Assembly: GCA_030390025.1 (NCBI GenBank)
Contig: CM059437.1
Span: 17,112,001-17,176,000, forward strand
Reading direction: 5' to 3'
Source of the DNA: Squalus acanthias
Lineage: Eukaryota
DNA: 64,000 bases
Shown here in pieces: positions 24,601 to 59,210 of this stretch. Position 1 is the first letter of the stretch. The number at the start of each line of letters is the position of its first letter. The translations under genes were made by a program, and so were the position numbers. Under the pieces are notes generated by a model. It ran no database searches. It saw nothing but the letters and a program-made list of their open reading frames with translations, and was not told where the DNA came from.

Positions 24601-27339
24601 AGCGCCAAGTAGTAATATCACAGGATCCGCAAAGTACTAGTTAACATCTAACCTAGACTCCTATAAAAAAAAACCTTTGCAAAAACTATTTTAAAAAGGT
24701 GACGCACAGCAAGTGTTTTATGTGTATATCACGAATGTATTTATTGAGGGCAAGCAGCACAGCGCTAAGCTACAGAATGATCAACAGAGAGCGTTTATGT
24801 AAACAGGAAGATGGTGTTGCTTCTGAATACACAATCGTTGCTGTATTTTGGTTACCACCCCGTCAATGTAAATACTCTGCATTATATCACCCTTATTCTA
24901 AAGAAAGGCTAGTCTTCTTCATTTTAATAACCCTGTGGTCTTATAAAGTGTGTTTCGCAATCAATAAGCTTCGGATTGGAAATGAATAATATTTCCAATT
25001 CGCCTCGAGCCGAGTGCTTTACATTTTAGGTAAAAATTGAAAGCCAGCAAAATCGCGAAAATAATCCCCAATTTTCGTAAACCGGTTGCACCTGTTATAT
25101 AATTAACTATTTAACAGCTCGCTTCTCCTTTCTCTCGATGAAAATCCTTTCTTTGGCTGGGTTTGAATGGCCGTCCTGGTACATTTGGAAGGCTGCAAAT
25201 CATCTTCTCAGCAGGAGAAAGAAAACGTAGGGAACGGAACGAGCTCCTCACAATGAGGGGTTTATTCATGCTGCACAGATCAGTAGTAATTACGGACCGC
25301 TAGAAGGCAAAAATTGTTAAATACTGACTACACCCCGCAGCGTTCTTTTATTTTACAAAGCAATTTAAAAATAGTACTGAAAGCTCGACAAAGTATGGAT
25401 ATAAGGGAACATGCTTCGATACAGGAGTTAAAAAAAATGTTTCGATTTCCAAGCACTCGAATTTTGTCCGCCGTACAAGTCCAAATTGTGACTTATTCAC
25501 CTGTTCTTGCTGGGCGCGAGACTGCTCCGTGCTTAGCATGTTTTGAGATCTCAGAAAAATCTGCCAGTTATTTAACAACAACAACAAAAAAAAACCCGAG
25601 GGTTGTGATTGTCAGACGAGATTTTCTGAATAGTTTTGAATCTTTTCACAAGGTGACAAATAGCAGGGGAGTAGAAAAGAATTTTTTAAAAAGCTGACGG
25701 TCAGCAACACGCTTTTATATCATCTGTTGACTTTTATTCTGTGCAAAAAATAAATAAATAAGAGAAAAGTTAAATATTCAGATCGGCGATGTCAGCTTTT
25801 TATAGCCAGCCAGTTTGAAAGAATAGACCCGGTATCAGTTAATTCTAGATTCTAATTAGATCTGATATCCTCCAGTTCTATTTTCTAAACAGTTTGGGAA
25901 TCAATAACTGGATGTCGCGTTGATGTTTATATTGTCGTTTTAAACAAAAACAATTAAAAAAAATACATTTAATGCAGCAACTGGCGTTTTTGTATTGTTA
26001 GTGAACTCTTAAAGATCGGTGGAGCATTTCATATTGTACATTTCCCAGACCGTCAGGAGAAAGGCTCGGATCGGATTTCTTTCTCGCGTGTTCCACTCCA
26101 AGGTTAACAAGCAGAGCAAACAAAGAAAATCTCAGCCTCTCCACATGCTTCCCAACACCTTTGAACCCCTTCCTAGGTGTAGGGAGGCTAGGTAGCTACT
26201 CCATTTATTCACAGCCGCCACCTATCGCTGTCACAACGCTCTCCCATCCATCATCTTTCACTGACACGTGTGGATAAAAAACAAATAAAGTTTTTTTTTG
26301 TTTTTTAAACAACTCACTGACATTTCGTTCATCCTGTGTGCAAACATCATTTTCATTTTTTATACCCCCCCCCCCCCCTCTCCCGTCGCCTTGACAATAT
26401 AATCAGCTAGTTATAATCAGATTGGAAAAATGCATTTCTGTACTTCAGAAAACACCGGAGTCCGCGATTCACCCGTTAATTTAATTGCACGCCAGACGCG
26501 GTATGAAGATAGCGGTCAACAACAACAAAAAAAGTACAGAAATTAGTAAAGGATCTTGACTTTAACAAAGTTCCGGGAACTGGTCCATCCAAGATTCGCT
26601 CTGGGTTCAATAAAAGGATCGTATACTAGCGTTTTCTCTGACGGGACAAATACCTGATGTACCGAGTCCTGGTGATTTCCGACACGAGACTCGAAAGGCA
26701 GCAGTGACAGCGCCAGGCAACTCGCCGCTTGTGACAGGACTAAAGACATTTATAGTTGAAGTGGGTATCACATGAGAATGTCACTTAAATCGCCGCATTG
26801 ATTAGCAGATAGCGGAAGAGACCAGGTATAATTAAGGGATAAAGTATAAGGTAAATGTCCCAAATCACACTTTAAAAAATGCAACGTTCTTTGCGCCTTT
26901 TTGAGTTTTTGTGTGTGTGGAATCCAGCCCTTAGCTTTAACTGTGGTGTGACAGATGAACGAAATACCACTTAAAGCTCCGTGTTCAAATTAGTATGTTA
27001 TATAACTTGTGGGGTACAGTTTGCTTCGTGGCCATTTTAAAATCCTTCTTTTAAACAGTATTGCGTGACCTTTCTGTCTCTTAGTTAAGTTGCCGACCAA
27101 ACCAGGATGGTATTTTCAACACAAACTTTGAGATCGCTAAAGCGGCCGCTCAATTTTTCTTTCATAGTTGTGTTTTTTTTTTACTCGTTTACTCCCCCTT
27201 TTCCTTCTCTTTTTTTTCTAAACCCAACGTCGACTTGCGGTGACTGAGCTACGTTCTGGTGATTGCTCCAGTCCTCGGAGGAGAAGTTCGCGGATTCATT
27301 TTTTTTGAGTGTTTGTTTACCAGTTTTGCCGAGCACGCC

Positions 27340-27590
27340 ATTGCTGGACCCATAAAACAATTTCCTAGCATGTTATAACGTGTTTATGAAATTGTCGGCT
27401 GATTATTTCGGATGGGCTGCTCGCTGATGGAAATGCAGCTTTCATTAACTGATTCTAATTAAAGTTAATTAGGATCGCCGCCGGGTAAGTGATGTAATAC
27501 GCCCTCCGTCCAATCACACCGCAGCAGCCAGCCAATTGGATGCGTTTGCATATCAGATCCATATGCATGAAGCGGCCATGCAAATCCAGA
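27340..27590 (+). promoter_or_regulatory. Dlx4 proximal promoter region
   Basis: CpG-rich, with two CCAAT boxes (about 27510 and 27532), a TAAT/ATTA cluster (27440-27472) and octamer ATGCAAAT (27578-27585), 230-470 bp upstream of the ATG. Confidence 0.55.
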
Positions 27591-27810
27591 AGTTTTCCCT
27601 GAATTTCACGGGGAATTCTCTCAACTTAACCCCCTTTTTTTTGACTCCGCATACAAGTGGGAAATTCGCCTCGACTTGGGAAAATTGAGGAGAAGACGGT
27701 TGGATTTGGTTGGCGATCGGCCTCTGTGTCAGTTTCATGTTGCGCGTCAATTCCATGTCAATTTCCTGCACGCTGGTAATTCCTAGTCAGTCCCGTGCAC
27801 TTCCTCGTTA

Positions 27811-28111
27811 ATGATGACTATGACCGCGATGGCTGACGGTCTGTTAGCACCAGACTCATCCAAGTCGGCCTTTCTGGAGTTTGGACACCCAGCTCAGCAG
27901 TCATCCCCTGGCATGTCCCATGGACACTATCCGGTGCACGGCTTGCACTCCAGCGGACACTCTCAGCACGATGGCTCCTACTCCGGCGCCTCTTCCTATG
28001 GCAGATCACTGGGTTACCCGTACCCGAGCCCAGTTAGCAATCACGCACCTAATCCGTACATGCCCTACCAGAACAGCAGCACTTTGGGTCACACCAGGTT
28101 AGAGGACACAG
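27811..28111 (+). CDS. DLX4: Distal-less homeobox 4, coding exon 1
   Basis: MMTMTAMADGLLAPDSSKSAFLEFG...HYPVHGLH...RLEDT is a Dlx1/4/6-class N-terminus with the AFLEFG motif. Phase-1 donor G|GTAAGA at 28111/28112. Confidence 0.93.
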
Positions 28112-28777
28112 GTAAGAACGGCTCGGACACCAGTTCACGTTGTCAAATCGATCGGGTTACACCGTGGCTTCTCTCGCCTTTCTGCAACGGAGTCAAAGCC
28201 CTTGCAGAGTGCGGTGCCGAGATTGGAGCGGCCTGGCTGATGACATTATTTATATATTCATAAAAAAAAAGTATTTTAATTACGTGCTTTAAATAGACAA
28301 GCGCAATTAGGCAAATCTAATGCTGGAAAATCATGAGCTCGTACAGTATTCCGTCTCCTGCCAAAACGCCACAGTCATTGAGTGGCGCTACGGCGAAATA
28401 ATCCATTGTTTGCCGAGAGATCCACTTTGCTGGGAAATTAAACGACCTGACCGATTACATAAGTGGAGTGTTACAGTGAGCTAGCGGGGGAAAACGTTAC
28501 CGACTTGGAAAATATTAAAATTCGATCCATTTTATGTATATTTTTGTAGTAAGACCACATCGGAGTACAGAAAGAAAGCATTGAGTATTAGAGTCCAGTT
28601 GTTGCAAAGGATCAGCATTTCGGTTAAAACGTTACTCTCTCTCTCTCCGGTAATAATAATTACGCTCCCGTCTTTACTGGGATCGCAGTGAATATATTTT
28701 ATTGTGCAGGGGGCAGGGTGTCGTGATTTTTAGAATGTGATGTGCCTAAAACACAGTGTTTCCAATTTCCCTCCAAG

Positions 28778-28971
28778 AACACGAGAAATCGACTGTAATC
28801 GAGAATGGAGAAATCCGATTGAACGGGAAAGGGAAAAAGATCCGAAAGCCGAGGACCATCTACTCGAGTCTGCAGTTGCAAGCCCTGAATCATCGCTTCC
28901 AACAGACGCAGTATTTGGCACTGCCCGAGAGAGCAGAGCTGGCAGCCTCTCTCGGACTCACCCAGACACAG
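28778..28971 (+). CDS. DLX4: Distal-less homeobox 4, coding exon 2 (homeodomain N-part)
   Basis: Acceptor CTCCAAG|; (E)[64 protein letters not shown]; donor CAG|GTAGGG. Frame is consistent with exon 1. Confidence 0.95.
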
Positions 28972-29244
28972 GTAGGGAGCTGGCCACAACCGATTCTCCT
29001 CTCTTAGAGTCTGAGAGTCCACTTAAAAAAATGCAACCTCTTTGTTCTTGGGGGAACTCACACAGAGGCCGTTCTTGAAAAAGTGTGCAAATTTAACCCC
29101 GTTTGACAACCACAGGTCAGTTCTCAAACTCAAAAAAATTCCACACCGTAGCAGGTCTTTAGTAAAAGGCACGGAATTTGCATACCTCAAAGTATTCGCG
29201 ACGAACGAGGTACAAAAATTCCAGCAATAACCCTTCGAATTCTT

Positions 29245-29269
29245 AAATAACAACAGAAAACGCTGGAAA
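29245..29269 (-). mobile_element. 25-bp truncated insertion of a Penelope-derived short element with a 16-bp TSD
   Basis: AAATAACAACAGAAAACGCTGGAAA matches the ends of the copies at 54396 and 62439. It is flanked by AACCCTTCGAATTCTT at 29229-29244 and 29270-29285. Confidence 0.85.
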
Positions 29270-32076
29270 AACCCTTCGAATTCTTGTAGGGTTCAGTCGA
29301 GATCCCACCGCACTTAAAAGCTGTTAATATAATTCTGCATTCGACTGCAATGTTTATGTCCCTGCTCAGGTTTTGTTTTAATGACAGCGTGTGCTGTAAA
29401 GATGCAAGTAGACTGTGTTTGTACCGAAGCATTGTACCACTGCTCAACAAAATGGCAGAGGATAATTACAGGACTTCTGTGTAACGCCACTTTTAGAAGT
29501 TTTCTTGTGGGATGTTTCTAGTTAATCTGCTGAAGGGTGTGCGTTGGAAATTTGTATGTGATGCAGAAGCCCTTATTATATCCGTTAAATTACAAGAATT
29601 TGGGGGCAAAATAAATTGGTAATCGTTTACGCATCATCCATTTTTATAAAAGGTAACTTTAAAAAAAATGTGGTGCAGCTTAACAACCATTCTCCAGGAA
29701 ACTCAGTTGTATGTACTATGACTTGAAGATCAGAATTGAACAGCGCCTTTTCAATTCCTACGTAAGGGACTCAGGACAATTGTGTCATTTTCTAAAACTG
29801 CCATTTGCTCAGGGCAGTGGATTTTTTTTTAAATGCCAAATTTACCTCCTCCAAAATGGCCGCTAGTAATGAAAAGATAGCCCCCTTCCAATATTCCCCA
29901 TCTATTATATTTCAGAACTCCTGATAATGTGGTGCATGAAACAAATTCGTACTATAGCGCATAGGTAGACGGCGCATCGACTCCTCCACACAGTTGAAAT
30001 CATTACACTTTTCAACGCCGCACAGTGAACCAGTCCATTGTTGTCATGCACCCTTCACACTTGTAAAAACACAGTAAGCTCTCAATATGTAATTCAAATG
30101 TTTTGAAGTTTTCATAAGTTTATCAATTTTCTTTTCGTGCTATTGAATGACACTTTTTTTTAAAGTGTGCATAAAAAACCTCAAATTTCTAGAAAACTGG
30201 AAAATATAACTTGCTTCCCGTGAACAATTCACATGCAGCACAGCTCAAGCTATGTGTGCTTTCCTTTCCTAAGGCATTCTGCTGTTTTTGGTATTCCTGG
30301 CGCTTTCAGTTGAGTTCCTGTAAATCGCACATTAAAAATGTATTTCGCATGACTTGTCCATCATAGGATTTCAAGTTTGTACAGGCATTAATAGTTATCC
30401 AGAAAATCTGTTACTAAAGAAAAGAACCAGATTACGTGTGTATGGAAATCTCATATCTCACAGAGAGATAGCCTCTTAATTCGGAATATAATACATTTAG
30501 AATTGATCATGATTATCACCGTAGCGCCGTCCTGTCAAACGAATGATTTTCGTTTTAATTATGTAAATATTTATCCCAATTACAGCTGCCGAACATAAAT
30601 CCGTAAATATGAAATTAAACTAGTAAGAGCATTTTGTTTCATGTCTTAAAGATTCGGAAACAAAACATTGCAACAACGCGGGCTGTAAAATGCCTATATA
30701 GACCTTTATTCCAAACAATAGTTTGCTTGCATCTTCTAAAATAATAAACACTACAGTGTTTCAAATTCTTAGCAACTGTTCTGGCTGCAATTGGTCTTGT
30801 GTTATGCTAGAATGTATGTGTTGTATTGACAATAATTCGCCCCAATGGAACTTTAAGAAAGCAGCTAACACAGCCAGATCATGTGCTGGCGAACGCCACT
30901 TTGACATTGGCGTTGTGTCTGGTCTACAAATGTTCGCTACATAACCACCAGTTATTTCCACATCGAAACACGTTGAAGTCAATATGCTGAAAATAATAAC
31001 TTTATGCAGACGTGCAAATAGGCCCAAGGAAGGGACACGTTTTTAAAGAGAGAGGCGGTTTTAAAAGTTTGCTGCAGGTTCCACAGTCTAAATGGAAGTA
31101 CAGACTCCTTACAGAAACAAATGGCAGTTTTCTGTACAAGGGAGCGTGCTCAACAGATCAGTATAAAATAAACTATAACCATACTGCTGGCAAATACTGG
31201 GTGACATTTTCCCAATGTGCAATACTGATTCAACGCTGAGGGTCTTGCATGGTCCTGTTAGTATCTTCTTGTGCCACTGTCTTTTCGCGTAAAGTATTGG
31301 GCCGGGAAAGAAACTAAACAGCTGGTTATCTTTAGCAAGGAACCAAAGCTCCCTATAGTCATGTTCTATGTGAAACTATAGACTCTCGCATTTTAATGTC
31401 GATCTATAGGTCAATTAAAATCACTTGTGATTTTGCGCCAGTCTATAGCTTTTTACTACTACTGACCGGTTGAACGTGCACCACTTTATACCAAACTCCT
31501 TGTCATTTTTGCAAGGAATCTGTACTCTCATGTAGACTGTGGCATCTGATCCGACTTACAGCTTGCGTATAAAACCGCCTGTCTCTTATGTGTCCTCTCC
31601 TTGTGTTTTTTTTGCATGTCCATATTGAAACCTTTTTAAAACGCCATTATCCCATTCCTTTATTCATCCCACTCATTTTCTTTTCGAAGCTCCTAAATGT
31701 GATTGCAGTAATTATTTACTGACGGCCTGCTTTTCAAGAGCAGCCTGAATGTTCAGGCATCACTGGTTTGACAGGATCATTGGCAAAGGGCTGCGGTAGC
31801 TTGAAGCCTTTTCTATATTACACATCAGCCCTTCATAAACATTAACAACTGTGAATGTAGTTTGCTTTTACAAACATGATTTCAAATACATTGAAATCGA
31901 AAACGGGCGGCGTTTTGGCGGAATCACTTGTGAATGTAAACACATGGCTAATCCATTAAAAAAAAACAGTGGACTCTCTTGCATTCTATAAAGCCGTATG
32001 CGCCAAGTTATTCGAGTGTAGCGTTTCAACTTAACGGTGCAGCAAATGTGATGCGTTTGTTTTAATTTTATTTCAG

Positions 32077-32328
32077 GTGAAAATCTGGTTTCAGAACAAG
32101 CGCTCCAAGTACAAGAAGCTGATGAAACACGGATCCAGCGTGCAAGAAGGCGACCACCTGCCCACCTCCGCTGCTTTGTCCCCATGTTCGCCCAATATCC
32201 CACCAGTCTGGGACGTTACCATGGCAAATAAGGGCGCCACTATGCCACCGAACAGCTACATTAACAGTTTTGGGTCGTGGTACCCGCCGCCCCACCAGGA
32301 CAACATGCCAAGACCCCAGATGATGTGA
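32077..32328 (+). CDS. DLX4: Distal-less homeobox 4, coding exon 3
   Basis: Acceptor TTTCAG|; [19 protein letters not shown]...WDVTMANK...[23 protein letters not shown] and linkage to Dlx3 favour Dlx4 over Dlx6. Total 248 aa. Confidence 0.93.
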
Positions 32329-33003
32329 TTGACCAGGAGTACAATCTACCCCACAAACTTTTTATCATGTAAAACAAAAAAAAAATCAGTGTCCACATGA
32401 TTTGAAGTAGTCTTATGGACGAGAAAAGACGACTGGTTAGAGATAACAATGACTATATGCTTTCAGTCATATCTAAACAGGTTTGTTCTAGAAATACAAT
32501 GGGTATATAGAGTCAGACTCCTCTAATGAGCTTTGTATGATGTTTGGAATTCTATTGGAGAAGTTTGATGCATCTATAATCTACGTTGTGAATTGCAAAA
32601 AAAGGACTGATTTTATAGCTATTCTATTAAGCTCACTTTTAATGTTGTTTTAACAAAAGAAAAACGCATTTTTACTCCAGGATGCAGATCCTTCTTCGTT
32701 GGGTAAAATGCATAGGCTGTATTTCAAAGTGTTCACTGATAGGCCGTCCCAATCCCTTCTTAGGGCAAGTGCCGTATCAGCTTTCTTTGTGTATTTGTAT
32801 TTAATTACCGCAATTCCAGATTGAAGCATTGTGTAATTTACCGTATATAACTTCAGCCAGGCCGAGTTGTAAACATCTGTTTTAGTTGAGGAGCATCTGA
32901 CTGGAATATTCAGGGCTTTGTTTTTGAAAAGAACAATCTGTGTCAGTGTGGAGAGAACGCGATGAATTCAAACACCTACAACCACCAAGCTGCGTATAGG
33001 TGG

Positions 33004-33212
33004 AATAGAACAGAAAGAGCTGGAAATACTCAGCGGGTTCCCCAGCGTCTGTAAAGAGAAAAAAAGACAGACCAACGGGCTTTGATCCTTGATCAGAAAT
33101 TCCTAGAAGTTCTGAAAAAAAAGTCAATACCTCAAACATTAACCTGTCTTTTTACAGCTGCTAAGGGAAATGCTGTTTTTCCAGCGTTAAAAAAAATCAG
33201 ATTGCCAGCACT
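33004..33212. mobile_element. Old, decayed copy of the Penelope-derived inverted-repeat element
   Basis: AACAGAAAGAGCTGGAAATACTCAGCGGG... and GTTCTGAAAAAAAAGTC...AAACATTAACCTGTC...TTCCAGC resemble the arms of 62439-62780. Confidence 0.6.
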
Positions 33213-35539
33213 TTCATGTTTGTTCTGTATATAATTGAACTGTTTTTGGGGACAGTTGAAGGAAACTTTTAAAATTCACATTTCAATATAGGTCCATTAA
33301 AACAGCGCATGCAATTTGTATTGTTATTCTGCACAGTAGTTTCATCCAGGCCCGTCTGCCATGTTTAAATTCAAATGATTGCTGTTCAAGATTTTCAACC
33401 GTTGAAAATCACTAGAGGTGGAAAGGCTTTACACTGGGTCGTACCCGCCCGTTTTCCCCACAGGGAAATGATCGCCCCCACCACCCACTCCACTCCCCGT
33501 TCCCTGCAGACCCTCAAACATGAACAATGCAATTCGTGATGAGTGTGGTGTGTTATACAAGATGAACTGGACATGGCTCCCTTTTGAAATACAGCCTATG
33601 TAGAGAAATAAAAAAGGGATATGTTTAGCTCATCCAAGCAATATGAAGGCAAAAGGTGTCTTGGAGAACGAGAGAACACAGTACGTGTGTGTATATATTG
33701 TTAAATTAGTTGTAAATAGTGCATATGTATTATGTCTCATTATTCTAAGTAAAACAGTGATACGCGTTCAAAGCATCCTATCTACACCCAATTCGGAAAA
33801 ACATGGTTACTCAATTTAACAGTAAGTTTCTCAGGATAATAGAAGCCGGAGTGTGTTAGCATTTTTTTTTAAAGCAATGCCGACTTACTGTGGATTTAAC
33901 TGTAATTATGTGTAAAGGAAAGGCACGGCGTTTGCATGTAATTGATCAAACTATTCCATTCATTCCACATCCCTTCACAATTTCTCGCTTACATTTCCTT
34001 GGGGTCAAGCATAGACATGAAGCTTAATAGATTTCTTTTTAATATAAAATGTCTGCGGTCACGTTAGAAAGTGGAGGAAACGTGCCTTTTTTTTGCATGA
34101 CCACATATTAATTTGCCGAGAAGAACTGGTGCATTTTTTTTTGGAAATGTTGTTATTTGTCTTTATGATTAAAAAAAAAATACCCTGGACTTCTAAAAAT
34201 TCAGCTGTGGTTTCCAGTGTGGCAACCGAGGGCCTTACCTATGTATTTATCTCAAGTGACCTGGGGTTTCCGAGAGATTGGGAGAACGTTAGTTTAGTGA
34301 GATCAAGGGCTGGCTCGCAAATTTCCTTAGATTGTTGCTTCTCTTTTTAATGAAACGCAACAGCTGGCGAGATTAACATGATGCCGAGGCAGCTTTAAAA
34401 AAAAACATCTAAGACAAAAATACGTTTTCAGGGCGGGGGTGATTTATTTTCTACTTCACAATAAGCGTAAAAATGGCACATGATAAGATCCTAACGTGAA
34501 AATGAGACAAAAAAAAATTAAAGTCGGTACTTGTCACACGAGGAATAATTGCAGGTAATAACCTGTCTTTCCAATGTTCAGTGTATGTATTGTCTCTTGA
34601 AGCTTCCGGCATATGTACTTCACCCTAACCTACCTGTGGCCAATCGATTTTGTCACTGACGAACAGTGCCACATTATTTTTAACGCCCCGACATGTATAT
34701 TTAATTGCATTTGTTGACATTAATCCTTTCTCTTGCCTTTCATTCCCATTCATCCTGATCAGCCCTCCTACAGATGCACCTAGATGATGAAATTTATTTA
34801 GTTCTCCGCTTTTTACCACCCCCCCCCCCCCCCACCACCCGCCTTCCTTAAAATAATAAAATGGTGGGAACACTGTACATCGAATCAGCATTTTGTGTGC
34901 CTTTTACTATCTGCAATACGTCACTGGAGGCCCATCCTAGCGTCTGTGCTAATTGTGTTCCATGTAAACCATTCACTAATGGCAAATAACGCGTTTTATA
35001 GATCCGTGATTTAGATTTTGTTCGCCAACATGTTTCGAAACACATGCTATCGGATGTATTTCTTTACTGAATATTAATGAATAGCTGCAGTCAGCCTCTG
35101 GTCAGCCCAGTGAACATATAAATCCGTCCGACCAAAGGTGATTGATTAAGTTGTAATATGTGCTGATTGTCAGTCGGGACTAACGGCCTTTAAGCCTTTA
35201 GGCGTGGCAGAATGTGGTCGACGTTTTCTTAAAAAACATGGAAGCGAATAAATCTATATTCCCTGTTCAAAGGTCTGACAGATACACCTGTGTCTAACAT
35301 TCCCAATTAAGAAAGGTATTACTTACCACGTGTCTCTGATCGCCACTTGTCATGCCTCACAAACTACAACACGTATTGAAATCCATGGTTAGCTCTCCCA
35401 ATTTTTTGTCAAAGTCAGTCTACAAGACAAGATAGTGGTGTTTACAGATTTTAATGCATAAAAGCTGGCATGTCAAGCCTCCCCCCGTAACATCTGCACT
35501 GGAAACCGTGTGCAAAGCCCACTTCTCTGCTATTTTAAG

Positions 35540-35790
35540 ATTTTTTTATGCTTGTGTGAAAGGGACTGTAATTAGAGCAATTTTGACTGTAGCTCCCTGA
35601 ATAAAGCGCTTTCCATCAAGATAATTACCAGCAATTTTCAGCCGCCTAAATGCACTGCTTAATATGTAACAATTCCGAGTGGAAAAAAAACGCGAAATCA
35701 GGCAGATGCACCGGCTGCAGTTTTGCTGCACAGATTTGAGTTGTTATTACCTAAATTACTTGCAGGTGTATATTGTAATCAGCAAAATAC
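35540..35790. promoter_or_regulatory. Candidate Dlx3/4 intergenic enhancer
   Basis: Non-repetitive block with multiple TAATT homeodomain sites (CTGTAATTAG, GATAATTACC, TAAATTAC) in the convergent intergenic region where Dlx enhancers are known to lie. Confidence 0.55.
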
Positions 35791-38700
35791 TGATAAAAGG
35801 AAAAGAAACATGCTTTGGATCGATGTAAAAAGCAAACCAGGAAATCTGCATTACAAAGGTATTTGATGATACGACAGTATTACTAAACGGAATATACAAT
35901 TGTCTGTTTCTTTAGTAATAGGCAGTTTCTGTAACTATGGACAACCTATTGAAGACAATTGAATAGAAAACGGCTGAATATTTCACTGAAATGTTATTAA
36001 CTCCTCACTTTCTTTACCTTGTAGGGAAAAAGCGAAGGTTTTTTCCCCCCAGTAAATGGTAGAAAGGTAAAATGAAGCCAATAACATTGGATCTCAAACG
36101 ATGGCCGAGATACAACATACTTAGTGACCCCCAAGAGAAAAATGCGATTTGATCATCACTATTCTGGTTTCCAACAAGTTTTTGTGGAAGTGTATCTCCT
36201 TTTGCCATTTCACTTAAAATGCCACCTGATATACCCCTTCTCCTTTAAGTTTATTATGACACATTTAGTCTTAAAATGCTTTAAATCTTATACTTCCCCC
36301 TCTTAAACGTTAGCATATATTTTCAAGTGACCTGCCTGTTGAGTTCAGTTTAGTCTACACATTTACAGCATCGGGCCTGTAAGTAATTTTCATGTACTAG
36401 AATAGTCAGCAAATAATCTATCAGCAAACCTGCCTGACAAAAGAGTGGGCAAATCATCATGCTCGTGCACTCGGTATGCCTTTAGGGTAATGGGGGGATA
36501 GAACACACAAGAAAGTCATAAGTGGGTGTGGAATTTTTTTTTTTAAACTTGCATCTTGGCTGATGTAATCGAGGTAGCTTATTAATTTTTCCACTGACCC
36601 CCGCGCACAGCACTTAATGTCATTTGAACAATGAGTCGATATTCCTGTCCGTAGTTTGCAGAAAACTATGCCAGGCGCGCCCTAACAGATCGCCCATCGA
36701 TACAGAAAACATGTATCACTAATAAAGATCACTTAGGCCGAATCAGATTGCCAAACGTTAAGAAAAGAACGCCTTCAAGGCAAAAAAAAACCATACCACA
36801 TACAACCACAGGGGTGAGCAGAACGCGCATTCGTCTCACAGACCGAAACTTAACATGTCGCTTTGCAATATTGCTGGACATCCCAGCCTTTCTCTCTCCC
36901 ATTAACTAAGGCATTCAATATATAGGACAATTATATTTCTTAACTCTACTGGAGAAAAATATCTGATTCAGAGAATACGAGAAGCATAAGCGAAGGGTAT
37001 GGCTTACCTGCTGTGGCTGGTATTTACTCACAAATTATTTTGCAGCCTGCAAAGAAAGGCAATTTGTCAGCCTTTATTTTTTTCCTCTCCCCTGAAATAC
37101 ATGCAGTAAAAGTGTAGGAAATGGAGCTAACAACGCCGGTGCTGCTAGCTCTGGTTAAAGCTCCAAGTGTGAATTAATTCCGCTATCAACGTCCTCTTTA
37201 TATTCTCAGCTCAATTAGCCTTTATTACTGGCCATGTTTACTCATCGAGAGATGGGATAAAATGTGTTGAATAGAGAAATTGCTCATCTTTGCAAATTAT
37301 AGGTAATTTTAAAGCTTGAGATTATAATAATAGCAGTCCAATCTGGACAGCCTACGTATAGTCTTCCAAACAGCATAATTACTGGAAAGGTTTAGGAACT
37401 CCAGAGAACTGAATTCATTATTTACTCTTCTCTTTGACGAACTTGGGGCTGTTTGATGAATACAAATCGTACAGATATAATTACAGTTCGGATTATTTTT
37501 TTTTATTATTATTATGAGCCTCTGGGACACATTCTCCAGTAAATCTAAGAAGGATACTGCTTGTCCACAGTGAGGAGCCGAGATCAGACTGTGCTTTTTT
37601 CCCCCCCTTTTCTCATTTACAGATGTGTGTGAGTGTAGAGAGGTTGGGAAAGTGGCCCTTTAAGGTGAGGTGAGGGATCTTACCATGGACATAGTTGAAA
37701 TACTTTCCATTGTAATCGTTAAGAAAAAGTTTTTAAGGTCAGACTGGGCTCCTACAATGTAAATTAAATTCTGCTGTTCGCTTTGATGTCTAACGATCGG
37801 GATCTTGAAACGCTGTAAATAAAATTCTAATCCGCATCCCCGGATTTCAGTATGTTTCCGGTTTTTAAACGGGCGAAAGTTTGCTTGCAGCCTCGGGAGA
37901 GAGACACCAGCCCTACAGCTCCCGACCCGAATGGTACAGTATGTTCAATTGTCAAGACTGTTGGAAGCGTATTCCTTTTAACCCTCGGCAGACTGCAGCG
38001 GGCTGCTCTGCACAGCATCCTGCCATAATGTACACGATTCTGAGTGGTTCCATTTCACTGAAGCACCCTACGGTACTGCAGGGACGTCAGTCATAACTGT
38101 TATAGTTCCCATGTAGTGGAATGTAATTGACTGCAACTGATGCCCTTCAGTCCGCAAAGGGTTACACGGAAAGATTGCTTTTAGGGACGCTCTTACAGCC
38201 TAAATGTTATGTAATGATTTCAAAATGCTGTGATGTGCCGCATATTTCTTATTTAATATACACATGTATTGCCAAAAATTCGATACACTGGTCGTTTCCT
38301 TTCGATTCCTCTGGTACAAAAAATGATCTTACCGTTGTGTAGTACTTCGTGCAATATTTGAAGACATGGACTCTTTGCAACAATGAATCTGGAGCCTGAA
38401 CCCAATTTCTAATTACCACCACCCCCCCACCCCCCAACCCGCCCCACCACCACCCAGTTTCACTTTCTTTCTGTCAATGGGCGGGCTATTTTTAAATCAC
38501 AGCTTTAACCTAAGTATGTACGAGCTGCTCTTTGTATTGCAAAGCGTCTTTTTTTTTAAAAAAAGCATTATCTTTGCTATCCTTACTGAAACGATTGCAG
38601 TCCACTGCTCCCTCTACCTGTGTCACGTAACATATACCAGGATGCAGAAAGCTGGCCTCCACTTTGATTTTTTTTCCAGTCACTTTTTTAAACGATTTTT

Positions 38701-39869
38701 TCCCCTTTCATACTCGACTCCATCAACTACACCCACGAAACACCGTGTACAATTAAATAAAACCTCAGCCCACGCTATCAAGTACTGTGTATGTACATAC
38801 CGGTCCGCGTCTGTAATTTGCAATATATTCCATATTCAACATCTTTGTGTCTATTTCGATACTATACAGACGCAGAATCTTAAGTTAACCACTTTATAAA
38901 TGGGTTAGAGATTGTTCATTTTTTATACATCTTTTCCATTGCGAAATTCTAAGTAAAAGAAACCACAATTGTCCCACGGCAAAATAGCGAATAAAAATGA
39001 GCAGGTTGTAACCAGTTCACCTGTAGAGATAAGTCGGGTCTCTTCGCTGCATTTAACTACAAATGTTAAGTGCTCATAATGTCGAGGCAGGGCTGGATTG
39101 TTCTTTGGTTTTGTGCCTGGAATACGAGCCTGATCTTACAAACTGGGAATCAAGTTTATAGAATCCACAGAAATTACTTTATAGAACTCGAGCTGAATTT
39201 ATAAAGCAACAGCTCTTTTGTTGTTGTCTGGGTGCAAACTTGGTATTCGAGGTATATTACCTAGTAATTAGGTATTAATTACTAATTGTTTTATATATAT
39301 AATATAAGTTATACAGTAAAGTGTAAGTGAGATTAATAATGCAAATCACTCCACAGCTTGGCCGCAGTGTCAGTCTATGCAATCCCTTTGGGTTAACTTT
39401 GTATGAACTGCAATCCCGAGGAAGTACAAGCGATTAAAACAGAAGAAATATGATGCCATTGTTCTGCTGGTTTCTCCAGGCAAAAACTCCATTAAAATGT
39501 TGTACATTTCCACATAGACCGTGTCTTAAAGATGGCTTATTTTACGATTATAAGAATGAAATATCCCGAATTCGTGCTGTTTTTGCAGATTGTCGACGCG
39601 ATTACGATGCTTTTGACTCAAAATTGGACATTTGTTAACATTGCAATCTCCCTGAGATGATATTTGCTCTCGTAGTTAGGAAAATCAAATGATTGTGTCA
39701 CCAATCAGCCATAAATGTATCGTTCGACTTCTCCCTGCACATTGCATATACACAGACATACATATATCTGCACATATCTACATGAGCAGTTTATCAATGG
39801 AAGTAGCGCAATTGTTCATTGATATGATACGATCATAACATTATAGTAATGTATTCGAACAATTACATT

Positions 39870-39990
39870 ACAACAATTACAACAGTGACTACACTTAAAA
39901 TAAAGTACGTCATTGGCTGTAAAGCACTTTGACACGTCAGATGGTCGTGAAAGGTGCTATATAAATGTAATGTATAAATATATTTTTTTC
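39870..39990 (+). mobile_element. Deu-domain SINE 3' fragment
   Basis: TTACAACAGTGACTACACTT...CATTGGCTGTAAAGCACTTTGACACGTC...GTGAAAGGTGCTATATAAATG. Confidence 0.8.
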
Positions 39991-40122
39991 TTTTAATGCA
40001 TGCACCGTATACGGGACTGGAAAATTTGTGTGCACGAGGGAAAGCTGAACATACATAACTCATCGCTAAGACTACAGTGTAGTGACTGGGATATCACAAC
40101 AATATGTAATGTGATCAGCAAT

Positions 40123-40620
40123 AATCATAGAATCATAGATAATCATAGAATCATAGAATGGTTACAGCACGGAAGAAGGCCATTTGGCCCGTTGAGCCCT
40201 TGCCGGCTCTCTGCAAGAGCACTTCAGCTAGTCCCACTCCCCCCGCCCCCCCCCCCCTTTCCCTGTAGCCCTGCAATTATTTTTCCTTCAGGTACTTATC
40301 CAATTCCCTTTTGAAAGCCGTGATTGAGTCTGCCTCCACCACCCTTTCAAGCAGTGCATTCCAGATCCTAACCACTGGCTCTGTAAAAAAAAAAAGTTTT
40401 TTCTTGCGTTGCCTTGGGTTCTTTTGCCAATCACCTTAAATCTGTGTACTTCGGTTCAGGACCCTTCTGCCAATGGGAACAGTTTCTCTCTATCTACTGT
40501 GTCTAGACCCCTCATGATTTTGAACACCTCTATCAAATCTCCTCTCAACATTCTCTGCTCCAAGGAGAACAACCCCAGCTTCTCCAGTCTATCCACATAA
40601 CTGAAGTCCCTCATCCCTGG
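40123..40620 (-). mobile_element. 5'-truncated CR1 LINE (RT C-terminus, 3' UTR and microsatellite tail)
   Basis: PGMRDFSYVDRLEKLGLFSLEQRMLRGDLIEVFKIMRGLD, with a (ATTCTATG)n tail at 40123-40160. Confidence 0.92.
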
Positions 40621-43932: not shown

Positions 43933-44229
43933 TTAATAGACTGCTCCAGTACTCTGAGGCGGCGGCTGGTGCAGTGAGTTTGTTGCTGGTAAGTGAGAGC
44001 CTGAGGGGTACCAGTGATTGAAGTCTTCCAGGTAGTTCTGAGACGAGTTGTGCGGGGTCTGATGTTGGAGGGGGTTCCTAGTCGAACTATGGCTCTCCCA
44101 AACGGCCGGAGAAGGGGGTGAATTGCATGCCATCGAATCGCTGTTGTTGGGACTGTGCTCCATTGTGAGCTCTCCGTTTTTGTAAAGCTTCTTAAACTTG
44201 GATCTTCTGTTCTGAAACCAGATTTTCAC
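43933..44229 (-). CDS. DLX3: Distal-less homeobox 3, coding exon 3
   Basis: Polypyrimidine tract and CAG|; [41 protein letters not shown]...GAVY* is diagnostic of Dlx3. Confidence 0.96.
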
Positions 44230-45189
44230 CTGACCAGGCGGGAAAGAAAAAATAAAGAGAACTGGTGGGTAAGACTTTGTTGTCAAGTACCGAGAAGATG
44301 ATAGAGAAAGCATGTAAATACTTAGCAAAAGGCACCATTACAAATTCACCCCTCAAAAGTAGATAGATAGAACTATTATTGTAGAAATAATTTTACTGTT
44401 GCCCCTTTATGGTATCTAGGACTTAAATGACATTTTTTCTGTTGTTCATTCTTTAGTACTTTCTACTTAATACATGTAATCTTTTTAAAATAAAACTCGA
44501 TTGAGTCTCTTTTACTCCACGGATACTCTTGTGTAATCAGTACCAACCCAATCACCTCCCCCCCCCCCCCCCCCCTCCACACACGCACACACAATGTAGA
44601 AAACTCGCTTCTGAGGCCTTTTGGCTGAAATATATTCACATTGTTCCAATGATTTCTCGCGCATTTAGAGAACTCCACATGTCTGCAGATAGTTACAATG
44701 CCGGATCTGTGCAAATGTTTGCTCAATCCCTCTTTGTCACTGAATACATTCTGGTAAAACCAATCCAGTTCTATGTCTGATCATGAATTTGCCCTACCTA
44801 CTGTATGTAACAGGTTTCCACTGTCATCATTTCATCAGCTCTTATTTTCTAAAGTTAGATATACTAGTAACAAGAGGACAGAGCTAGTCAATCAGTGAAA
44901 AACGAACGATATAAATACCTATAGTAAAACATACATAATAGCATAAATAATTCTATGAAAGATTACTTGAGCTACAGAAAAAGCAATGGGAAAATGCAAG
45001 TAAGTGTATTGATATGGTAATGCGAGATTGTGAGGAATGTTTGGGAAACAAGTATGGAGAGAAAGCTTGCATTTAAAGTGTCCCATTATCACGGGTAACA
45101 TGCTTTAGGTTGTTGGTGTATCTGCTTTTGAGCCAGTGTAGAAACAAAAAGCGAGGCCTGTCTCAGCAATAAAACGGGTGTGGAGCTTA

Positions 45190-45498
<309 letters not shown>

Positions 45499-47247
45499 TC
45501 ACAAACAATTAAACATAGACTCTCTGAATTGTCGAGATTTCACATTAAAAAAAAAGCAACGCAGCAATTAAGAGGTCAGACGAGGCAAAGAATTTCTTCC
45601 TCACTGCAAGAATTCCAATTCACGTTGTAAATGCAAAGTAAAGCAAATGCAACACAGAGTGAACATCTTATATTGTTACATTCCTTCAGGAGTGCAACAC
45701 CTCAAAACTCTGTGCCCAATTCATTACACTAGTTAAGTCAATGTTTTATTTAATGGTACAAATTACAGAAAGAGGGAAGAAACTGCTAATTATTATTATT
45801 GATAATTATTATTACAAGATGCAAACCAAAGCTTTATCATCTCATTTGAAAAGTGAAATCCCTTTTCAGGTTTCCTGTTCTACGTCATTCATACACAGTC
45901 TAATCTTTATTTATTAATGACTTTATGTATTTACCTATGTAGTGTGCCCATGGGGTAATGGAATCCTTAAACGATTAAGCAAGCCACCCTGACACAGTGA
46001 AAATGCACAGTGCCGGAGCGAGGAAACTAACCATAGGACAATCTTTACAGTGTTCCATTTGGAATCGTGTGACCATTTTATTATTTTCGCCTGCATTTGT
46101 CCCTTTAAAATAGTGGCAGGAAGAACTATTCATTACTCGGAATTAAAACTCAACTTTCCCTGTCCGCAATGCACGTTTGCAGCACATTCTAGCTTGCTCT
46201 GAGTATTTCACTATAGTCGGGTCTGCAGGTTAACAGCGACCCTGACCAAAGAGAGATAGAGTTCATTCCGGCCAAGTGCTGAAACCAGTTTATGGTCCAC
46301 GCCCTAACTCGAACCCAATGCCCCTACCTAGTTTCTGGCCTCACAACCCCTGTTGGGTTCAAATGTCTATAAACAGGTTTTTGGACTGTCTCATTCCTAT
46401 ATACATAACAAGCTTGTACTCTGAATGATTCTTTGTATCATTGCTAAGAAATATAGAGTAACAAGTTTAAACAGTGTGTTTAATCGTGATCTCGTCTTAA
46501 CTTTCTTAGAGACAGATGCTTTCGATTGGTGGTAATTTCCACTTTTTCGCATACAGAGAGATTTAAAAAAAAGCCCCAGTTAAATATACAAACTGATTTT
46601 CACTTTCACACGTGAATTGGTGTTTTCGCTCGAGTACCGTGCAACTGATTTTGCACCAGTTTCAGCCATTGCTCGAATGAACATTTGTGTCATTTCTTAT
46701 TTGATATTGTCCAACGCGCCTGAGTATTCTGCACCCGAGAACGTTTTAGTCACCCCGGGTGGTTCAAACAATTACAATGCATTCCCTTGACAAAGTACCG
46801 GACACCCTGTCGTCCAGCATGAGGTGGCACCGTACTCTGGTTGGATAATGACAGCGCCAGACTACCTCGAATGGTTCAGCTCTAGAGATTACATGTGCAT
46901 ATTCTATCGAGTTAAACACTCCATTCTAATACATGCATTCTTTCTGCAGTGTTTTAGCTATCTCAGATCATGGAAAGGTTTAGTAAAATAGCACCTAGTA
47001 AACTGAATGATCGCTTTAAGAAGCGTCCGGTCAGGTGTGAACGCTCGGATTCAAAGGCTACACTGCACTTGCACTGCATTCTCCCTTCAACAGCCATTCA
47101 AGCAGCAGATCTCAAGCTCTCTCCTGTAAGGGAATGCAGCATTATATGACTACCCGGCAATTAGTTTGCACCGAGCGTTCGGCTGGAATGTCTTCCAGTT
47201 TGTTTCTGGCTACAGACAGCGATTGGGAAATTTGAAAGCGCCTTTAC

Positions 47248-47581
47248 CTCTCTCGGCCGCGGATATTTGATGATCCCTGTTGAAATGCCCATACTGACGG
47301 TACGAGTTACTGTAAGCATACTCGGGCTTTTGTGAATAGGAGCCAGGCCCGGGAATGTTGCTCAGATTGAATTGATGGTACGGATAGTGGTTCACCGGCT
47401 GAGAATAGGCTGAAGTCGGATAATAATCGTGCTGAGGATGACAGGACTGTGGGTTATAGTAACCAACATCTGTAGCCGTAGACTCTGGCAGAGTTGGAGA
47501 ATCTTTCGCAGGGTGGCATCCCATAGAGCCCTGGATGTCCGTAAGAAGACTGGGCAGCTTTTTCTCATAGGTTCCACTCAT
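47248..47581 (-). CDS. DLX3: Distal-less homeobox 3, coding exon 1
   Basis: [42 protein letters not shown]...YPYHQFNL; phase-1 donor G|GTAAAG. Total 273 aa. Confidence 0.95.
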
Positions 47582-55426: not shown

Positions 55427-58400
55427 AGAACATAGAACATAGAACATAGAACAGTACAGCACAGTACAGGCCCTTCGGCCCTCGATGTTGTGCCGAGCAT
55501 TGTCCGAGACCAAGATCAAGCTATCACACTCCCTATCACTCTGGTGTGCTCCATGTGCTTATCCAATAACCGCTTGAAAGTTCCTAAAGTGTCCGACTCC
55601 ACTATCACAGCAGGCAGTCCATTCCACACCCCAACCACTCTCTGAGTAAAGAATCTACCTCGGACATCCCTTCTATATCTCCCCCCATGCATCTTATAGT
55701 TATGCCCCCTTGTAACAGCTGCCTCTACCCGAGGAAATAGTCTCTGAACATCCACTCTATCTATCCCCCTCATCATCTTATAAACCTCTATTAAGTCGCC
55801 TCTCATCCTCCTCCGCTCTAAAGAGAAAAGCCCCAACTCCCTCAATCTTTCCTCATAAGACCTCCCCCCCAAACCAGGCAGCATCCTGGTAAATCTCCTT
55901 TGCACTCTTTCCAATGCTTCCACGTCCTTCCTATAGTGAGGTGACCAGAACTGCACACAATATTCCAAATGTGGTCTCACCAAGGTCCTGTACAGTTGCA
56001 GCATAACCTCACGGTTCTTAAACTCAAACCCTCTGTTAATAAACGCCAACACACCATAGGCCTTCTTTACTGCTCTATCCACTTGAGTGGCAACCTTCAG
56101 AGATCTGTGGATATGAACCCCCAGATCCCTCTGCTCCTCCACATTCCTCAGAACCCTGCCGTTGACCCTGTAATCCTTATTCAAATTTGCCCTACCAAAA
56201 TGAATCACCTCGCACTTATCAGGGTTAAATTCCATCTGCCATTTTTCGGCCCAGCTCTGCATCCTATCAATGTCTCTTTGCAGCCTACAACAGCCCTCCA
56301 CCTCATCCACTACTCCACCAATCTTGGTGTCATCAGCAAATTTACTGATCCACCCTTCAGTCCCCTCCTCCAAGTTATTGATAAAAATCACAAACAGCAG
56401 AGGACCCAGCACCGACCCCTGTGGCACACCGCTGGTAACTGGTCTCCAGTCCGAAAATGTTCCATCCTCCACCACCCTCTGCCTTCTATGAGATAGCCAG
56501 TTACTTATCCAATCGGCCAAATTTCCCTCTATCCCACAACTCCTTACTTTCTTCATGAGACGACCATGGGGAACCTTATCAAACGCCTTACTAAAATCCA
56601 TGTATACGACATCAACTGCTCTACCTTCATCTACACACTTAGTTACCTCCTCAAAGAATTCAATCAAATTTGTTAGGCAAGACTTACCCTTCACGAATCC
56701 GTGTTGACTATCCCTGATTAAGTTGCCCCTTTCCAAATGGTCATAAATCCTATCCCTCAGGACCTTTTCCATTATCTTACCAACCACCGAAGTAAGACTA
56801 ACCGGCCTATAATTACCAGGGTCATTCCTATTTCCTTTCTTGAAGAGAGGAACAACATTCGCCACTCTCCAGTCCTCTGGCACCATCCCCGTGGACAGTG
56901 AGGACCCAAAGATCAAAGCCAGAGGCTCTGCAATCTCCTCCCTTGCCTCCCAAAGAATCCTAGGATATATCCCATCTGGCCCAGGGGACTTATCGACCCT
57001 CAGGTTCTTCAAAATTGCTAAAACATCTTCCCTCAGAACATCTACCACCTCCAGCCTATCCACCTTTATCACACTCTCATCCTCAAGAACATGGCCCCTC
57101 TCCTCGGTGAACACTGACGAAAAGTATTCATTCATCACCTCTCCTATCTCTTCTGACTCCATGCACAAGTTCCCACTACTGTCCTTGACCGGCCCTACCC
57201 TCACCCTGGTCATTCTTTTATTTCTCACATAAGAGTAAAAAGCCTTGGGGTTTTTCTTGATCCGACCCGCCAAGGACTTCTCATGCCCCCTCCTAGCTCT
57301 CCTAAGCTCTTTTTTTAGCTCATTCTTTGCTACCTTGTACCGCTCAATCGACCCAACTGAACCTTGTTTTCTCATCCTTACATACGCTTCCTTTTTCCTC
57401 TTGACTAGACATTCAACCTCTTTTGTGAACCATGGTTCTCTCACTCGGCCATTTCCTCCCTGCCCGACAGGGACATACCTATCAAGGACACGCAGTAATT
57501 GCTCCATGAAAAAGCTCCACTTTTCGTTTGTGCCTTTCCCTGATAGTTTCTGTTCCCATCTTATACTCCCTAATTCTTGCCTAATCGCATCATAATTACC
57601 CCTCCCCCAATTATAAACCCTGCCCTGCCGTATGGCCCTATCCCTCTCCATTGCAATAGTGAAAGTTACCGAATTGTGGTCACTATCTCCAAAGTGCTCT
57701 CCCACATACAAATCAAATACTTGGCCCGGTTCATTACCCAGTACCAAATCCAACGTGGCCCCACCTCTTGTCGGCCTATCCACATATTGTGTCAGGAAAC
57801 CCTCCTGCACACACTGTGCAAAAACTATCCCATCCGAACTGTTTGACCTATAAAGGTTCCAATCAATATTTGGAAAGTTGAAGTCACCCATGACAACTAC
57901 TCTGTGACCTCCACACCTATTCATAATCTGCTTTGCAATTTCTTCCTCCACATCTTTATTACTATTTGGGGGCCTGTAGAAAACTCCTAACAACGTGACC
58001 GCTCCTTTCCTATTTCTAACTTCAGCCCATATTACCTCAGACGGCAGATCCCCCTCGAACTGCCTTTCTGCCGCTGTTAAACTATCCTTGATTAACAATG
58101 CTACTCCTCCACCTTTCTTACCAACTTCCCTACTCTTACTGAAACATCTATACCCCGGAACTTCCAACAACCATTCCTGTCCCTGTTCTAACCATGTCTC
58201 CGTAATGGCCACCACATCGTAGTCCCAAGTACCAATCCACGCTCCAAGTTCTCCTACCTTATTCCGGATGCTCCTTGCATTGAAGTAGACACACTTCAAG
58301 CCATCTTCTTGTCTGCCGGTACATTCCTGCGACCTTGATACCCTCCTCAGTACCTCCCTACACTCACCACTGGCTCGTGGACTACAGCCCTTTTTCCCAT

Positions 58401-59207
58401 CCCCCTGACAAATTAGTTTAAACCCCCCCGAAGAGCCGTAGCAAATTTCCCTCCCAGGATATTGGTGCCCCTCTGGTTCAGGTGCAAACCGTCCTGTTTG
58501 TACAGGTCCCACCTTCCCCAGAATGTGCTCCAATTATCCACATAACTGAAACTCTCCCCCCTACACCATCCCTGCAGCCACGTGTTTATCTGCACTCTCT
58601 CCCTGTTCCTCAACTCGCTAGCACGTGGCACCGGCAACAAACCAGAAATTACAACATGGTTTGTACTGGCTCTCAGCTTCCAACCTAGCTCCCTAAATTC
58701 CTGTTTTAAATCCCCGTCCCTTCTCCTACCTATGTCGTTGGTACCGATGTGTACCACGACTTGTGATTGTTCCCCTTCCCCTTTGAGGATTCTGAAAACA
58801 CGGTCCGAGACGTCACGGACCCTGGCACCCGGGAGGCAACATACCATCCGTGAGTCTCTTTTGCTGCCACAGAACCTCCTATCTGTCCCTCTGACTATTG
58901 AGTCCCCAATAACTATTGCTCTCCTGCTCTCCCCCCTTCCCTTCTGAGCCACAGGGACCGACCCAGCGCCGGAGATCCGGTCACCGTGGCTTACCACTGG
59001 TAAGTCGTCCCCCTCAACAGTATTCAAAGCAGTATACCTGTTACTGAGGGGAACGACCACAGAGGATCCCTGCACTGACTGCTTCCTCCTAGCCCCTCTC
59101 ACCGTCACCCATCTATCTTCATGCTTTGGAGTAATTACATCCCTGAAGCTTCTATCTATGACCTCCTCTGCCTCCCGAATGATCCGAAGTTCATCCAGCT
59201 CCAGCTC
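55427..59207 (-). mobile_element. Young CR1-clade LINE, 5'-truncated within ORF1
   Basis: Uninterrupted ORF2 and ORF1 remnant, a short 3' UTR and a (TTCTATG)n tail at 55427-55452. Possible TSD CATTA at 55422-55426 and 59208-59212. Confidence 0.96.
55516..58533 (-). CDS. CR1 ORF2: AP endonuclease plus reverse transcriptase
   Basis: EN motifs YFNARSIRNK, AITETW, MGDFNFP and GDSDH; RT motifs PGPDGI, NYRPVSLTS, QHGF, DFSKAFDKV, GVPQGSVLGP and KFADD. No stops. The listed start is TTG, and the true entry point is probably near 58420. Confidence 0.95.
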   Translation of the reverse strand: MEHILGKVGPVQTGRFAPEPEGHQYPGREICYGSSGGFKLICQGDGKKGCSPRASGECREVLRRVSRSQECTGRQEDGLKCVYFNARSIRNKVGELGAWIGTWDYDVVAITETWLEQGQEWLLEVPGYRCFSKSREVGKKGGGVALLIKDSLTAAERQFEGDLPSEVIWAEVRNRKGAVTLLGVFYRPPNSNKDVEEEIAKQIMNRCGGHRVVVMGDFNFPNIDWNLYRSNSSDGIVFAQCVQEGFLTQYVDRPTRGGATLDLVLGNEPGQVFDLYVGEHFGDSDHNSVTFTIAMERDRAIRQGRVYNWGRGNYDAIRQELGSIRWEQKLSGKGTNEKWSFFMEQLLRVLDRYVPVGQGGNGRVREPWFTKEVECLVKRKKEAYVRMRKQGSVGSIERYKVAKNELKKELRRARRGHEKSLAGRIKKNPKAFYSYVRNKRMTRVRVGPVKDSSGNLCMESEEIGEVMNEYFSSVFTEERGHVLEDESVIKVDRLEVVDVLREDVLAILKNLRVDKSPGPDGIYPRILWEAREEIAEPLALIFGSSLSTGMVPEDWRVANVVPLFKKGNRNDPGNYRPVSLTSVVGKIMEKVLRDRIYDHLERGNLIRDSQHGFVKGKSCLTNLIEFFEEVTKCVDEGRAVDVVYMDFSKAFDKVPHGRLMKKVRSCGIEGNLADWISNWLSHRRQRVVEDGTFSDWRPVTSGVPQGSVLGPLLFVIFINNLEEGTEGWISKFADDTKIGGVVDEVEGCCRLQRDIDRMQSWAEKWQMEFNPDKCEVIHFGRANLNKDYRVNGRVLRNVEEQRDLGVHIHRSLKVATQVDRAVKKAYGVLAFINRGFEFKNREVMLQLYRTLVRPHLEYCVQFWSPHYRKDVEALERVQRRFTRMLPGLGGRSYEERLRELGLFSLERRRMRGDLIEVYKMMRGIDRVDVQRLFPRVEAAVTRGHNYKMHGGRYRRDVRGRFFTQRVVGVWNGLPAVIVESDTLGTFKRLLDKHMEHTRVIGSVIA

Positions 59208-59210
59208 CAT
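58413..59210 (-). CDS. CR1 ORF1 (SGNH esterase-like domain), N-terminally truncated
   Basis: IVIGDSIVRG, CCLPGARV, VHIGTND and DGLHLN are the SGNH blocks typical of vertebrate CR1 ORF1p. Confidence 0.9.
   Translation of the reverse strand: MELELDELRIIREAEEVIDRSFRDVITPKHEDRWVTVRGARRKQSVQGSSVVVPLSNRYTALNTVEGDDLPVVSHGDRISGAGSVPVAQKGRGESRRAIVIGDSIVRGTDRRFCGSKRDSRMVCCLPGARVRDVSDRVFRILKGEGEQSQVVVHIGTNDIGRRRDGDLKQEFRELGWKLRASTNHVVISGLLPVPRASELRNRERVQINTWLQGWCRGESFSYVDNWSTFWGRWDLYKQDGLHLNQRGTNILGGKFATALRGGLN

Follow-up and report, generated by a model that had tools for sequence, protein, structure and literature searches.

A probable duplicated relative of the Dlx5/6 enhancer I56i in the shark Dlx3/4 intergenic region, accompanied by a spliced antisense RNA that encloses Dlx4

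The window, that is, the whole stretch of 64,000 nucleotides of Squalus acanthias DNA analyzed here, contains two convergent homeobox genes of three exons each, as delineated by open reading frames, homeodomains and splice sites. The gene on the plus strand has a coding span of 27811–32328, with exon 1 at approximately 27811–28111, exon 2 ending at 28971 and exon 3 at 32077–32328. Its assignment to Dlx4 is based on these reading frames, the homeodomain, the splice sites and a catshark Dlx4 primer (PMC3695995) that matches at 32155 on the plus strand with one mismatch (0 of 100 shuffles). The gene on the minus strand spans 43933–47581, includes DLL_N and homeodomain regions, and is matched at 44139 on the minus strand by a catshark Dlx3 primer from the same study (PMC3695995), again with one mismatch and in 0 of 100 shuffles. 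Forty-four of 50 protein matches to its first exon (E ≤1e-10; 102 candidates) are named Dlx3 and the other six are unnamed or hypothetical, with neither Dlx2 nor Dlx5 among these 50 names; the closest derive from a shark (93%) and a chimaera (75%). The exon-1 names and the primer matches therefore indicate that the locus is the shark Dlx4(+)/Dlx3(−) pair, with an intergenic region of 11.6 kb. One might instead read the locus as Dlx5/6, and the intergenic block described below as a decayed ortholog of I56i, given that the minus-strand homeodomain scores slightly higher against DLX5 than against DLX3 structures, partly through chain length, and by itself does not separate the two, and that the start of the plus-strand protein, as we take it, resembles Dlx6. 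The exon-1 names, the two catshark primer matches and the conservation of shark I56i over more than 300 bp (PMC3695995) make this reading scarcely credible.

Several further features were observed in the window. An inverted repeat of 61 nt (82%), 32073–32133 against 44173–44233, corresponds to the homeobox ends in the third exons of Dlx4 and Dlx3. The stretch 32329–35270 is likely a long Dlx4 3' UTR; a contig of a sequencing run from a relative (X18; contig depth 256) spans exon 3 to 35228, and an AATAAA lies at 35247. A short repeat fragment of very high read depth is located at 33009–33070, and within the intergenic stretch 39900–40600 there are SINE/LINE-like fragments near 40000–40600; the repeat search yielded no informative repeats. 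At 55516–59270 on the minus strand, two long open reading frames (285 and 1005 aa) presumably represent ORF1 and the endonuclease/reverse-transcriptase ORF2 of an apparently intact CR1-type LINE, and the transposon-gene-like reading-frame fragments at 315–1916 and 6575–7900 resemble what we take to be Harbinger/Myb-SANT-type transposon genes.

The block of interest, at 35540–35790, is located 3241 nt past the Dlx4 stop codon and 8294 nt from that of Dlx3. A sequence-only reading had placed it between the genes and had likened it to I56i; the motifs quoted in that reading were all recovered from the window in the order given, at 35566–35592, 35600–35606, 35620–35658 and 35664–35673. We compared the block with mouse and human I56i, an enhancer that also goes by the names mDlx, hDLXI56i and ei. 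The two sequences were taken from file 5 of the PMC13125632 supplement and file 3 of that of PMC12807873, and their cores are identical. The comparison covered about 400 of the 530–543 nt of these mammalian sequences. When the minus strand from 35639 to 35569 is aligned with the printed I56i core by eye, rather than by an alignment program, the two agree at 59 of 74 columns, with 12 mismatches (35632, 35630, 35615, 35609, 35604, 35601, 35596, 35594, 35587–35585 and 35578) and two gaps, one of 1 nt and the other of 2 nt. The alignment keeps the two TAATT sites in register. The first predicted Dlx-type homeodomain site, TAATTA at 35569–35574, aligns with a TAATT site of I56i, and the second, TAATTA at 35622–35627 followed by CC, is close to TAATTACVVS, the motif given for DLX-bound elements (PMC7768279).

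Under blastn scoring, the alignment counts correspond to a score of 66 (60.8 bits), with an E value of 6e-12 for the intergenic region and about 2e-6 for a genome of 4.5 Gb. Three nulls provided the reference: the block against 236 real 530-nt chunks of the window reached a best score of 33, 150 simulated sequences against the whole intergenic region reached 35, and 18 metagenome loci chosen for both motifs at this spacing reached 32. These 18 unrelated loci, used as controls, were obtained with a relaxed pattern; the two-site pattern itself returned 0 loci in metagenomes and 0 in viral contigs. A blastn search of plasmids gave two matches, which were judged to be chance. TAATT sites are abundant, with 69 of them in the 11.6 kb between the genes, and a related paired motif occurs in a second element described below; both facts could be taken to mean that AT-rich DNA independently gave rise to a pair of Dlx sites whose spacing is favoured. 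Such convergence is very improbable and largely refuted by the 37-nt spacer between the site motifs, which is identical to I56i at 28 of 37 positions (by eye) as opposed to at most 20 of 37 (mean 15.4) in all 18 motif-matched loci, and by a core score about twice that of every null. Since core and spacer both match above the nulls (score 66 against null maxima of 32–35), the likeness extends beyond isolated TAATT cores, the point on which the sequence-only reading had staked its claim.

The match is restricted to the core. Past 35640, only AATTTTC is common to the block and I56i over the roughly 400 nt compared, and upstream of the core the likeness is weak and unscored. GCCTAAA, GCACTGC and ATGTAACAAT are all missing from the matching place in these 400 nt, and the distal motifs named in the sequence-only reading were therefore wrong; at the core, by contrast, the likeness is stronger than had been claimed. 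Paralogy with I56i thus holds for about 71 nt and does not extend to the whole block of 250 nt. An ortholog would be expected to share about 75% identity with mouse I56i across about 300 bp, a level that a match of 74 columns does not reach, and the block lies between Dlx4 and Dlx3 instead of between Dlx5 and Dlx6, the position expected of an I56i ortholog. The true shark I56i, known from the catshark, keeps 76% identity with mouse over 338 bp (PMC3695995). These data support the view that the block is clearly a duplicated relative of I56i, a paralogous conserved element as judged by its sequence. With I56i it has in common the 71-nt core, two TAATT sites, a kept spacer, an intergenic location on the Dlx1/4/6 side and a link to an antisense RNA, and the matching part of I56i falls inside the 131-nt core unit of the DLX2.0 vector. 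The block differs from I56i in its linkage to Dlx3/4, its unalignable flanks and its host genes, which are not forebrain genes.

A further likeness concerns I12b, which was compared through its primers only, and with an E-box motif chosen with I12b in mind. Thirteen bases at 35759–35771 on the minus strand, including an E-box, CAGGTG, at 35763, also occur without mismatch in a mouse I12b ChIP primer (bioRxiv 463398). No match of this kind occurred in 100 shuffles, none of 253 window chunks shares a 13-mer with the block, and the analytic chance of a 13-base match is about 0.004 for the whole I12b element of 496 nt. The complete ChIP primer agrees at 15 of 20 bases, and a search for the full I12b primers at three mismatches did not find them. 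Another I12b primer matches 9–10 bases at either TAATT flank, by eye and on the same strand. An 11-base match of an I12b primer at 37277, in the second element, was rejected as chance, as it is in the opposite orientation and was reproduced in 10 of 100 shuffles; it illustrates that such short primer matches can arise by chance. Near 37150 and 37585, catshark primers for I12b and I56i match in part by eye; these likenesses were also judged to be chance. I12b contains three AATTA motifs (bioRxiv 463398), MASH1 is reported to act through it, and the two enhancers I12b and I56i are described as having no overall similarity. Known here from primers alone, I12b has in common with the block the 13-base E-box segment and the primer bases at the TAATT flanks. 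The E-box match hints that the block may be linked to both I56i and I12b, in spite of their described dissimilarity. A short, weak alignment between I12b and I56i was reportedly obtained by Ghanem in 2003.

Sequencing runs were used to assess the conservation of the block. Words of 35400–35900 were held by 20 of the 24 runs listed (9 organisms and 9 studies, with four rows that possibly represent the source sample), and none of the runs holding block words is recorded as RNA. Four of the 24 were compared over 32040–39539; the word shares of the organisms coded B, C, G and I and of the remaining runs were left out of the evidence. No paralog contig mapped to the block, and X15 had zero depth on Dlx4 exon 3, but neither observation carries weight, since the mapping discards contigs that resemble human sequence. 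In run X15, from another organism, one contig covers 35469–35861, a non-coding stretch that holds the block and whose limits are those of the contig and not of an element. It shows 13 substitutions in 393 nt (3.3%), compared with 143 in 1393 nt (10.3%) for six other pieces among the eight listed (Fisher p 4e-6); X15 pieces need 80% likeness, so that the background divergence is understated. The X15 contigs here have a depth of 3–5, and most of those compared a depth of 3–11. The pieces obtained from the DNA runs X14 and X10 are long, with 4–5% substitutions, and do not separate individual elements. The X15 figures argue for constraint on the block in its own lineage, as seen in one run that was found through the block itself.

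A second non-coding element, at 37220–37545, is nearly invariant, with three substitutions and five gap positions in 326 nt of X15 (Fisher p 2e-10 against the six other pieces, among the pieces listed). It is more conserved than the block, adjoins the 5' end of the antisense RNA described next, and contains three TAATT/AATTA sites and the related paired motif. We regard it as a candidate counterpart of I56ii/I12a.

The block is embedded in a spliced transcription unit that runs antisense to Dlx4. In one X18 contig, of depth 530, position 35419 is directly followed by 37008, so that 1588 nt with the ends CT..AC are skipped. Its loose end before 35327 maps to 25281–25299 with one mismatch (0 of 100 shuffles), where, on the minus strand, it directly follows a pyrimidine tract and AG and agrees by eye at 29 of 30 letters. 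Both joints derive from one contig of one relative's run, guessed to be RNA, and the strand was deduced from the splice sites. On the minus strand, the first exon seen is 37008–37140, with a 5' end that is approximate and set by depth only and with the donor GTAAGC; the middle exon of 93 nt, with a canonical acceptor and donor, is 35327–35419; and the third exon, upstream of Dlx4, is 24720–25299, its 3' end being guessed from AATAAA at 24740. The corresponding window introns, 35420–37007 (1588 nt) and 25300–35326 (10027 nt), are both of GT..AG type on this strand. The whole Dlx4 gene is contained in intron 2 of this three-exon RNA (25299–37140, minus strand). Its longest ATG reading frame, with the ends guessed, encodes 71 aa. 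The boundary at 35327 is also used by an X15 contig (depth 296), which continues from there to 34175 and covers 33075–34175, a stretch that may serve the antisense RNA as another last exon, overlapping the Dlx4 3' UTR.

This arrangement resembles that of Evf2, which is antisense to Dlx6, carries all of Dlx6 within its intron 2 and is partly transcribed from ei (PMC4047558). Evf2/Dlx6os1, Dlx1as and the shark RNA are all spliced, antisense to a gene of the Dlx1/4/6 type and initiated between the genes; the likeness to Evf2 is one of layout. Whereas the enclosed gene lies in intron 2 in both cases, the core is intronic only in the shark RNA, so that the overlap of an exon with the enhancer core, as in Evf2, is absent from the isoform seen. 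An antisense transcript is annotated at mouse Dlx4 as well. Our literature search retrieved no Evf2-like RNA at shark Dlx4, most subscription papers being beyond reach.

The proximity of the block to this transcription unit raises the question of whether, after descent from a common source with I56i, it was retained to serve the antisense RNA or the formation of the Dlx4 3' end, without itself acting as an enhancer. An acceptor of the antisense RNA is 150 nt away, the AATAAA at 35247, which may end the Dlx4 message, precedes the block by about 320 nt, and deletion of I56i in mouse abolishes Evf2. We consider retention of this sort unlikely, in view of the fact that the features kept with I56i are homeodomain sites and a spacer and not splice signals, that the core is located in intron 1 of the isoform seen (X18 depth of about 1, against 530 in the exons), and that 26000–50000 contains no Rfam match.

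The position of the block is also consistent with a common origin by duplication of the gene pair. Dlx1, Dlx4 and Dlx6 are described as descendants of one gene of the ancestral pair, and the element numbering in the available text of PMC3024246 implies that I56i is nearer Dlx6 and I12b nearer Dlx1. The block is nearer Dlx4, hence on the Dlx1/4/6 side, equivalent to the side deduced for I56i. The mDlx sequence runs in reverse chromosomal orientation which, with DLX6 presumably on the plus strand, would be from Dlx5 towards Dlx6. The strand of the shark core, Dlx3 towards Dlx4, would then correspond to the orientation of I56i. The antisense-RNA layout shared with the Evf2 locus suggests that enhancer and antisense RNA were inherited from an ancient genome duplication.

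Duplicated non-coding elements that date from the vertebrate genome duplications are a known class (PMC3595034). The block likewise represents a short core common to Hox-linked paralogous loci near developmental genes; in the main text of that study, as far as available, Dlx appears only among the linked genes and I56 is absent (PMC3595034). In the catshark study, the available text describes the Dlx3/4 intergenic region as containing no element conserved with the mouse or zebrafish orthologs and reports no cross-paralog comparison (PMC3695995), and none was found because only orthologous loci were compared. This lack of a catshark counterpart conserved with mouse or zebrafish Dlx3/4 would also be expected if a piece of I56i had been copied into Dlx3/4 after the duplication, whether by gene conversion or by transposition, and whether in early jawed vertebrates or in the cartilaginous fishes, and the short match with its fairly sharp edges fits such an event. 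We nevertheless hold a later copy to be improbable, more so than retention for the RNA, as the side, the orientation and the antisense-RNA layout are more simply accounted for by duplication of the whole locus, and a copy of I56i leaves the I12b-like tail unexplained.

The mammalian Dlx3/4 intergenic enhancer is I37-2, which has arch activity in mouse and is conserved between mouse and human, not in zebrafish, with no catshark counterpart by ortholog alignment in the available text (PMC3695995). As judged by description, I37-2 and the block have the gene pair and the intergenic site in common. Sumiyama and Ruddle are said to have noted in 2003 that mouse I37-2 matches mI56i, including a Dlx site. 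As an idea, a match between Dlx3/4 and I56i is thus probably not new. The intergenic enhancers of different Dlx pairs are described as dissimilar in the reviews and primary papers available, and our literature search found no shark Dlx3/4 copy of I56i, with most subscription papers beyond reach.

Taken together, we estimate at roughly three in four the probability that the block is the Dlx3/4 copy of an enhancer that predates duplication of the pair, likely operating in Dlx feedback with an output in arches or ectoderm. According to this interpretation, an intergenic enhancer would already have been present in the Dlx pair before the pair was duplicated with its chromosome; I56i would be the Dlx5/6 copy, and I12b is probably a more diverged Dlx1/2 copy. 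The two TAATTA sites, at a distance of 53 nt from each other, would be occupied by Dlx proteins, and the E-box, located another 140 nt along, perhaps by a bHLH factor. The element, positioned in the first intron of the antisense RNA, would feed back on Dlx3, Dlx4 and this RNA. Dlx feedback is the likeliest function because the block keeps the site pair with its spacer, and I56i itself holds DLX sites and is needed for Dlx5/6 expression, which falls by about 80% when it is lost. I56i is active in mouse forebrain and arches (PMC3695995). In the sources available, Dlx3/4 are not listed among the mammalian forebrain Dlx genes, nor in the catshark subpallium, where Dlx1/2/5 are found; ectoderm and placodes are sites of Dlx3/4 expression. 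Given that neither of the two is a forebrain gene, the output is most likely to be found in pharyngeal-arch mesenchyme, placodes/ectoderm or teeth.

As for its age, the sequence-only reading had proposed that a real match would place the enhancer before the vertebrate genome duplications. The match to I56i sustains an origin before the Dlx3/4–Dlx5/6 split; an origin before both duplications depends on the weaker link to I12b. From the history of the Hox-linked duplications, this split possibly belongs to the second, jawed-vertebrate duplication. The gnathostome elements were not found in lamprey, according to the available text of PMC3695995.

A broader version of this interpretation, to which we give somewhat less than even odds, is that shark Dlx3/4 keeps the whole ancestral cassette, in which I56i, I12b and I37-2 derive from one element, accompanied by an I56ii/I12a-like element and an Evf2-type RNA around Dlx4. 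If so, the Evf2 layout would be older than the Dlx3/4–Dlx5/6 split, and the block would constitute a natural variant of the DLX2.0 core, informative about the bases of forebrain versus arch activity.

With about 80% identity over the functional core, a shark copy would show common descent directly and render the history of the ancestral enhancer traceable. It also concerns an element that is widely used in interneuron vectors, and the question of how old the layout of Evf2-type lncRNAs is. The subpallium expresses Dlx1/2/5 but not Dlx3/4, so that the block and I56i would form a natural test of the division between brain and jaw among duplicated enhancers, a question tied to the Dlx code and to the origin of jaws.
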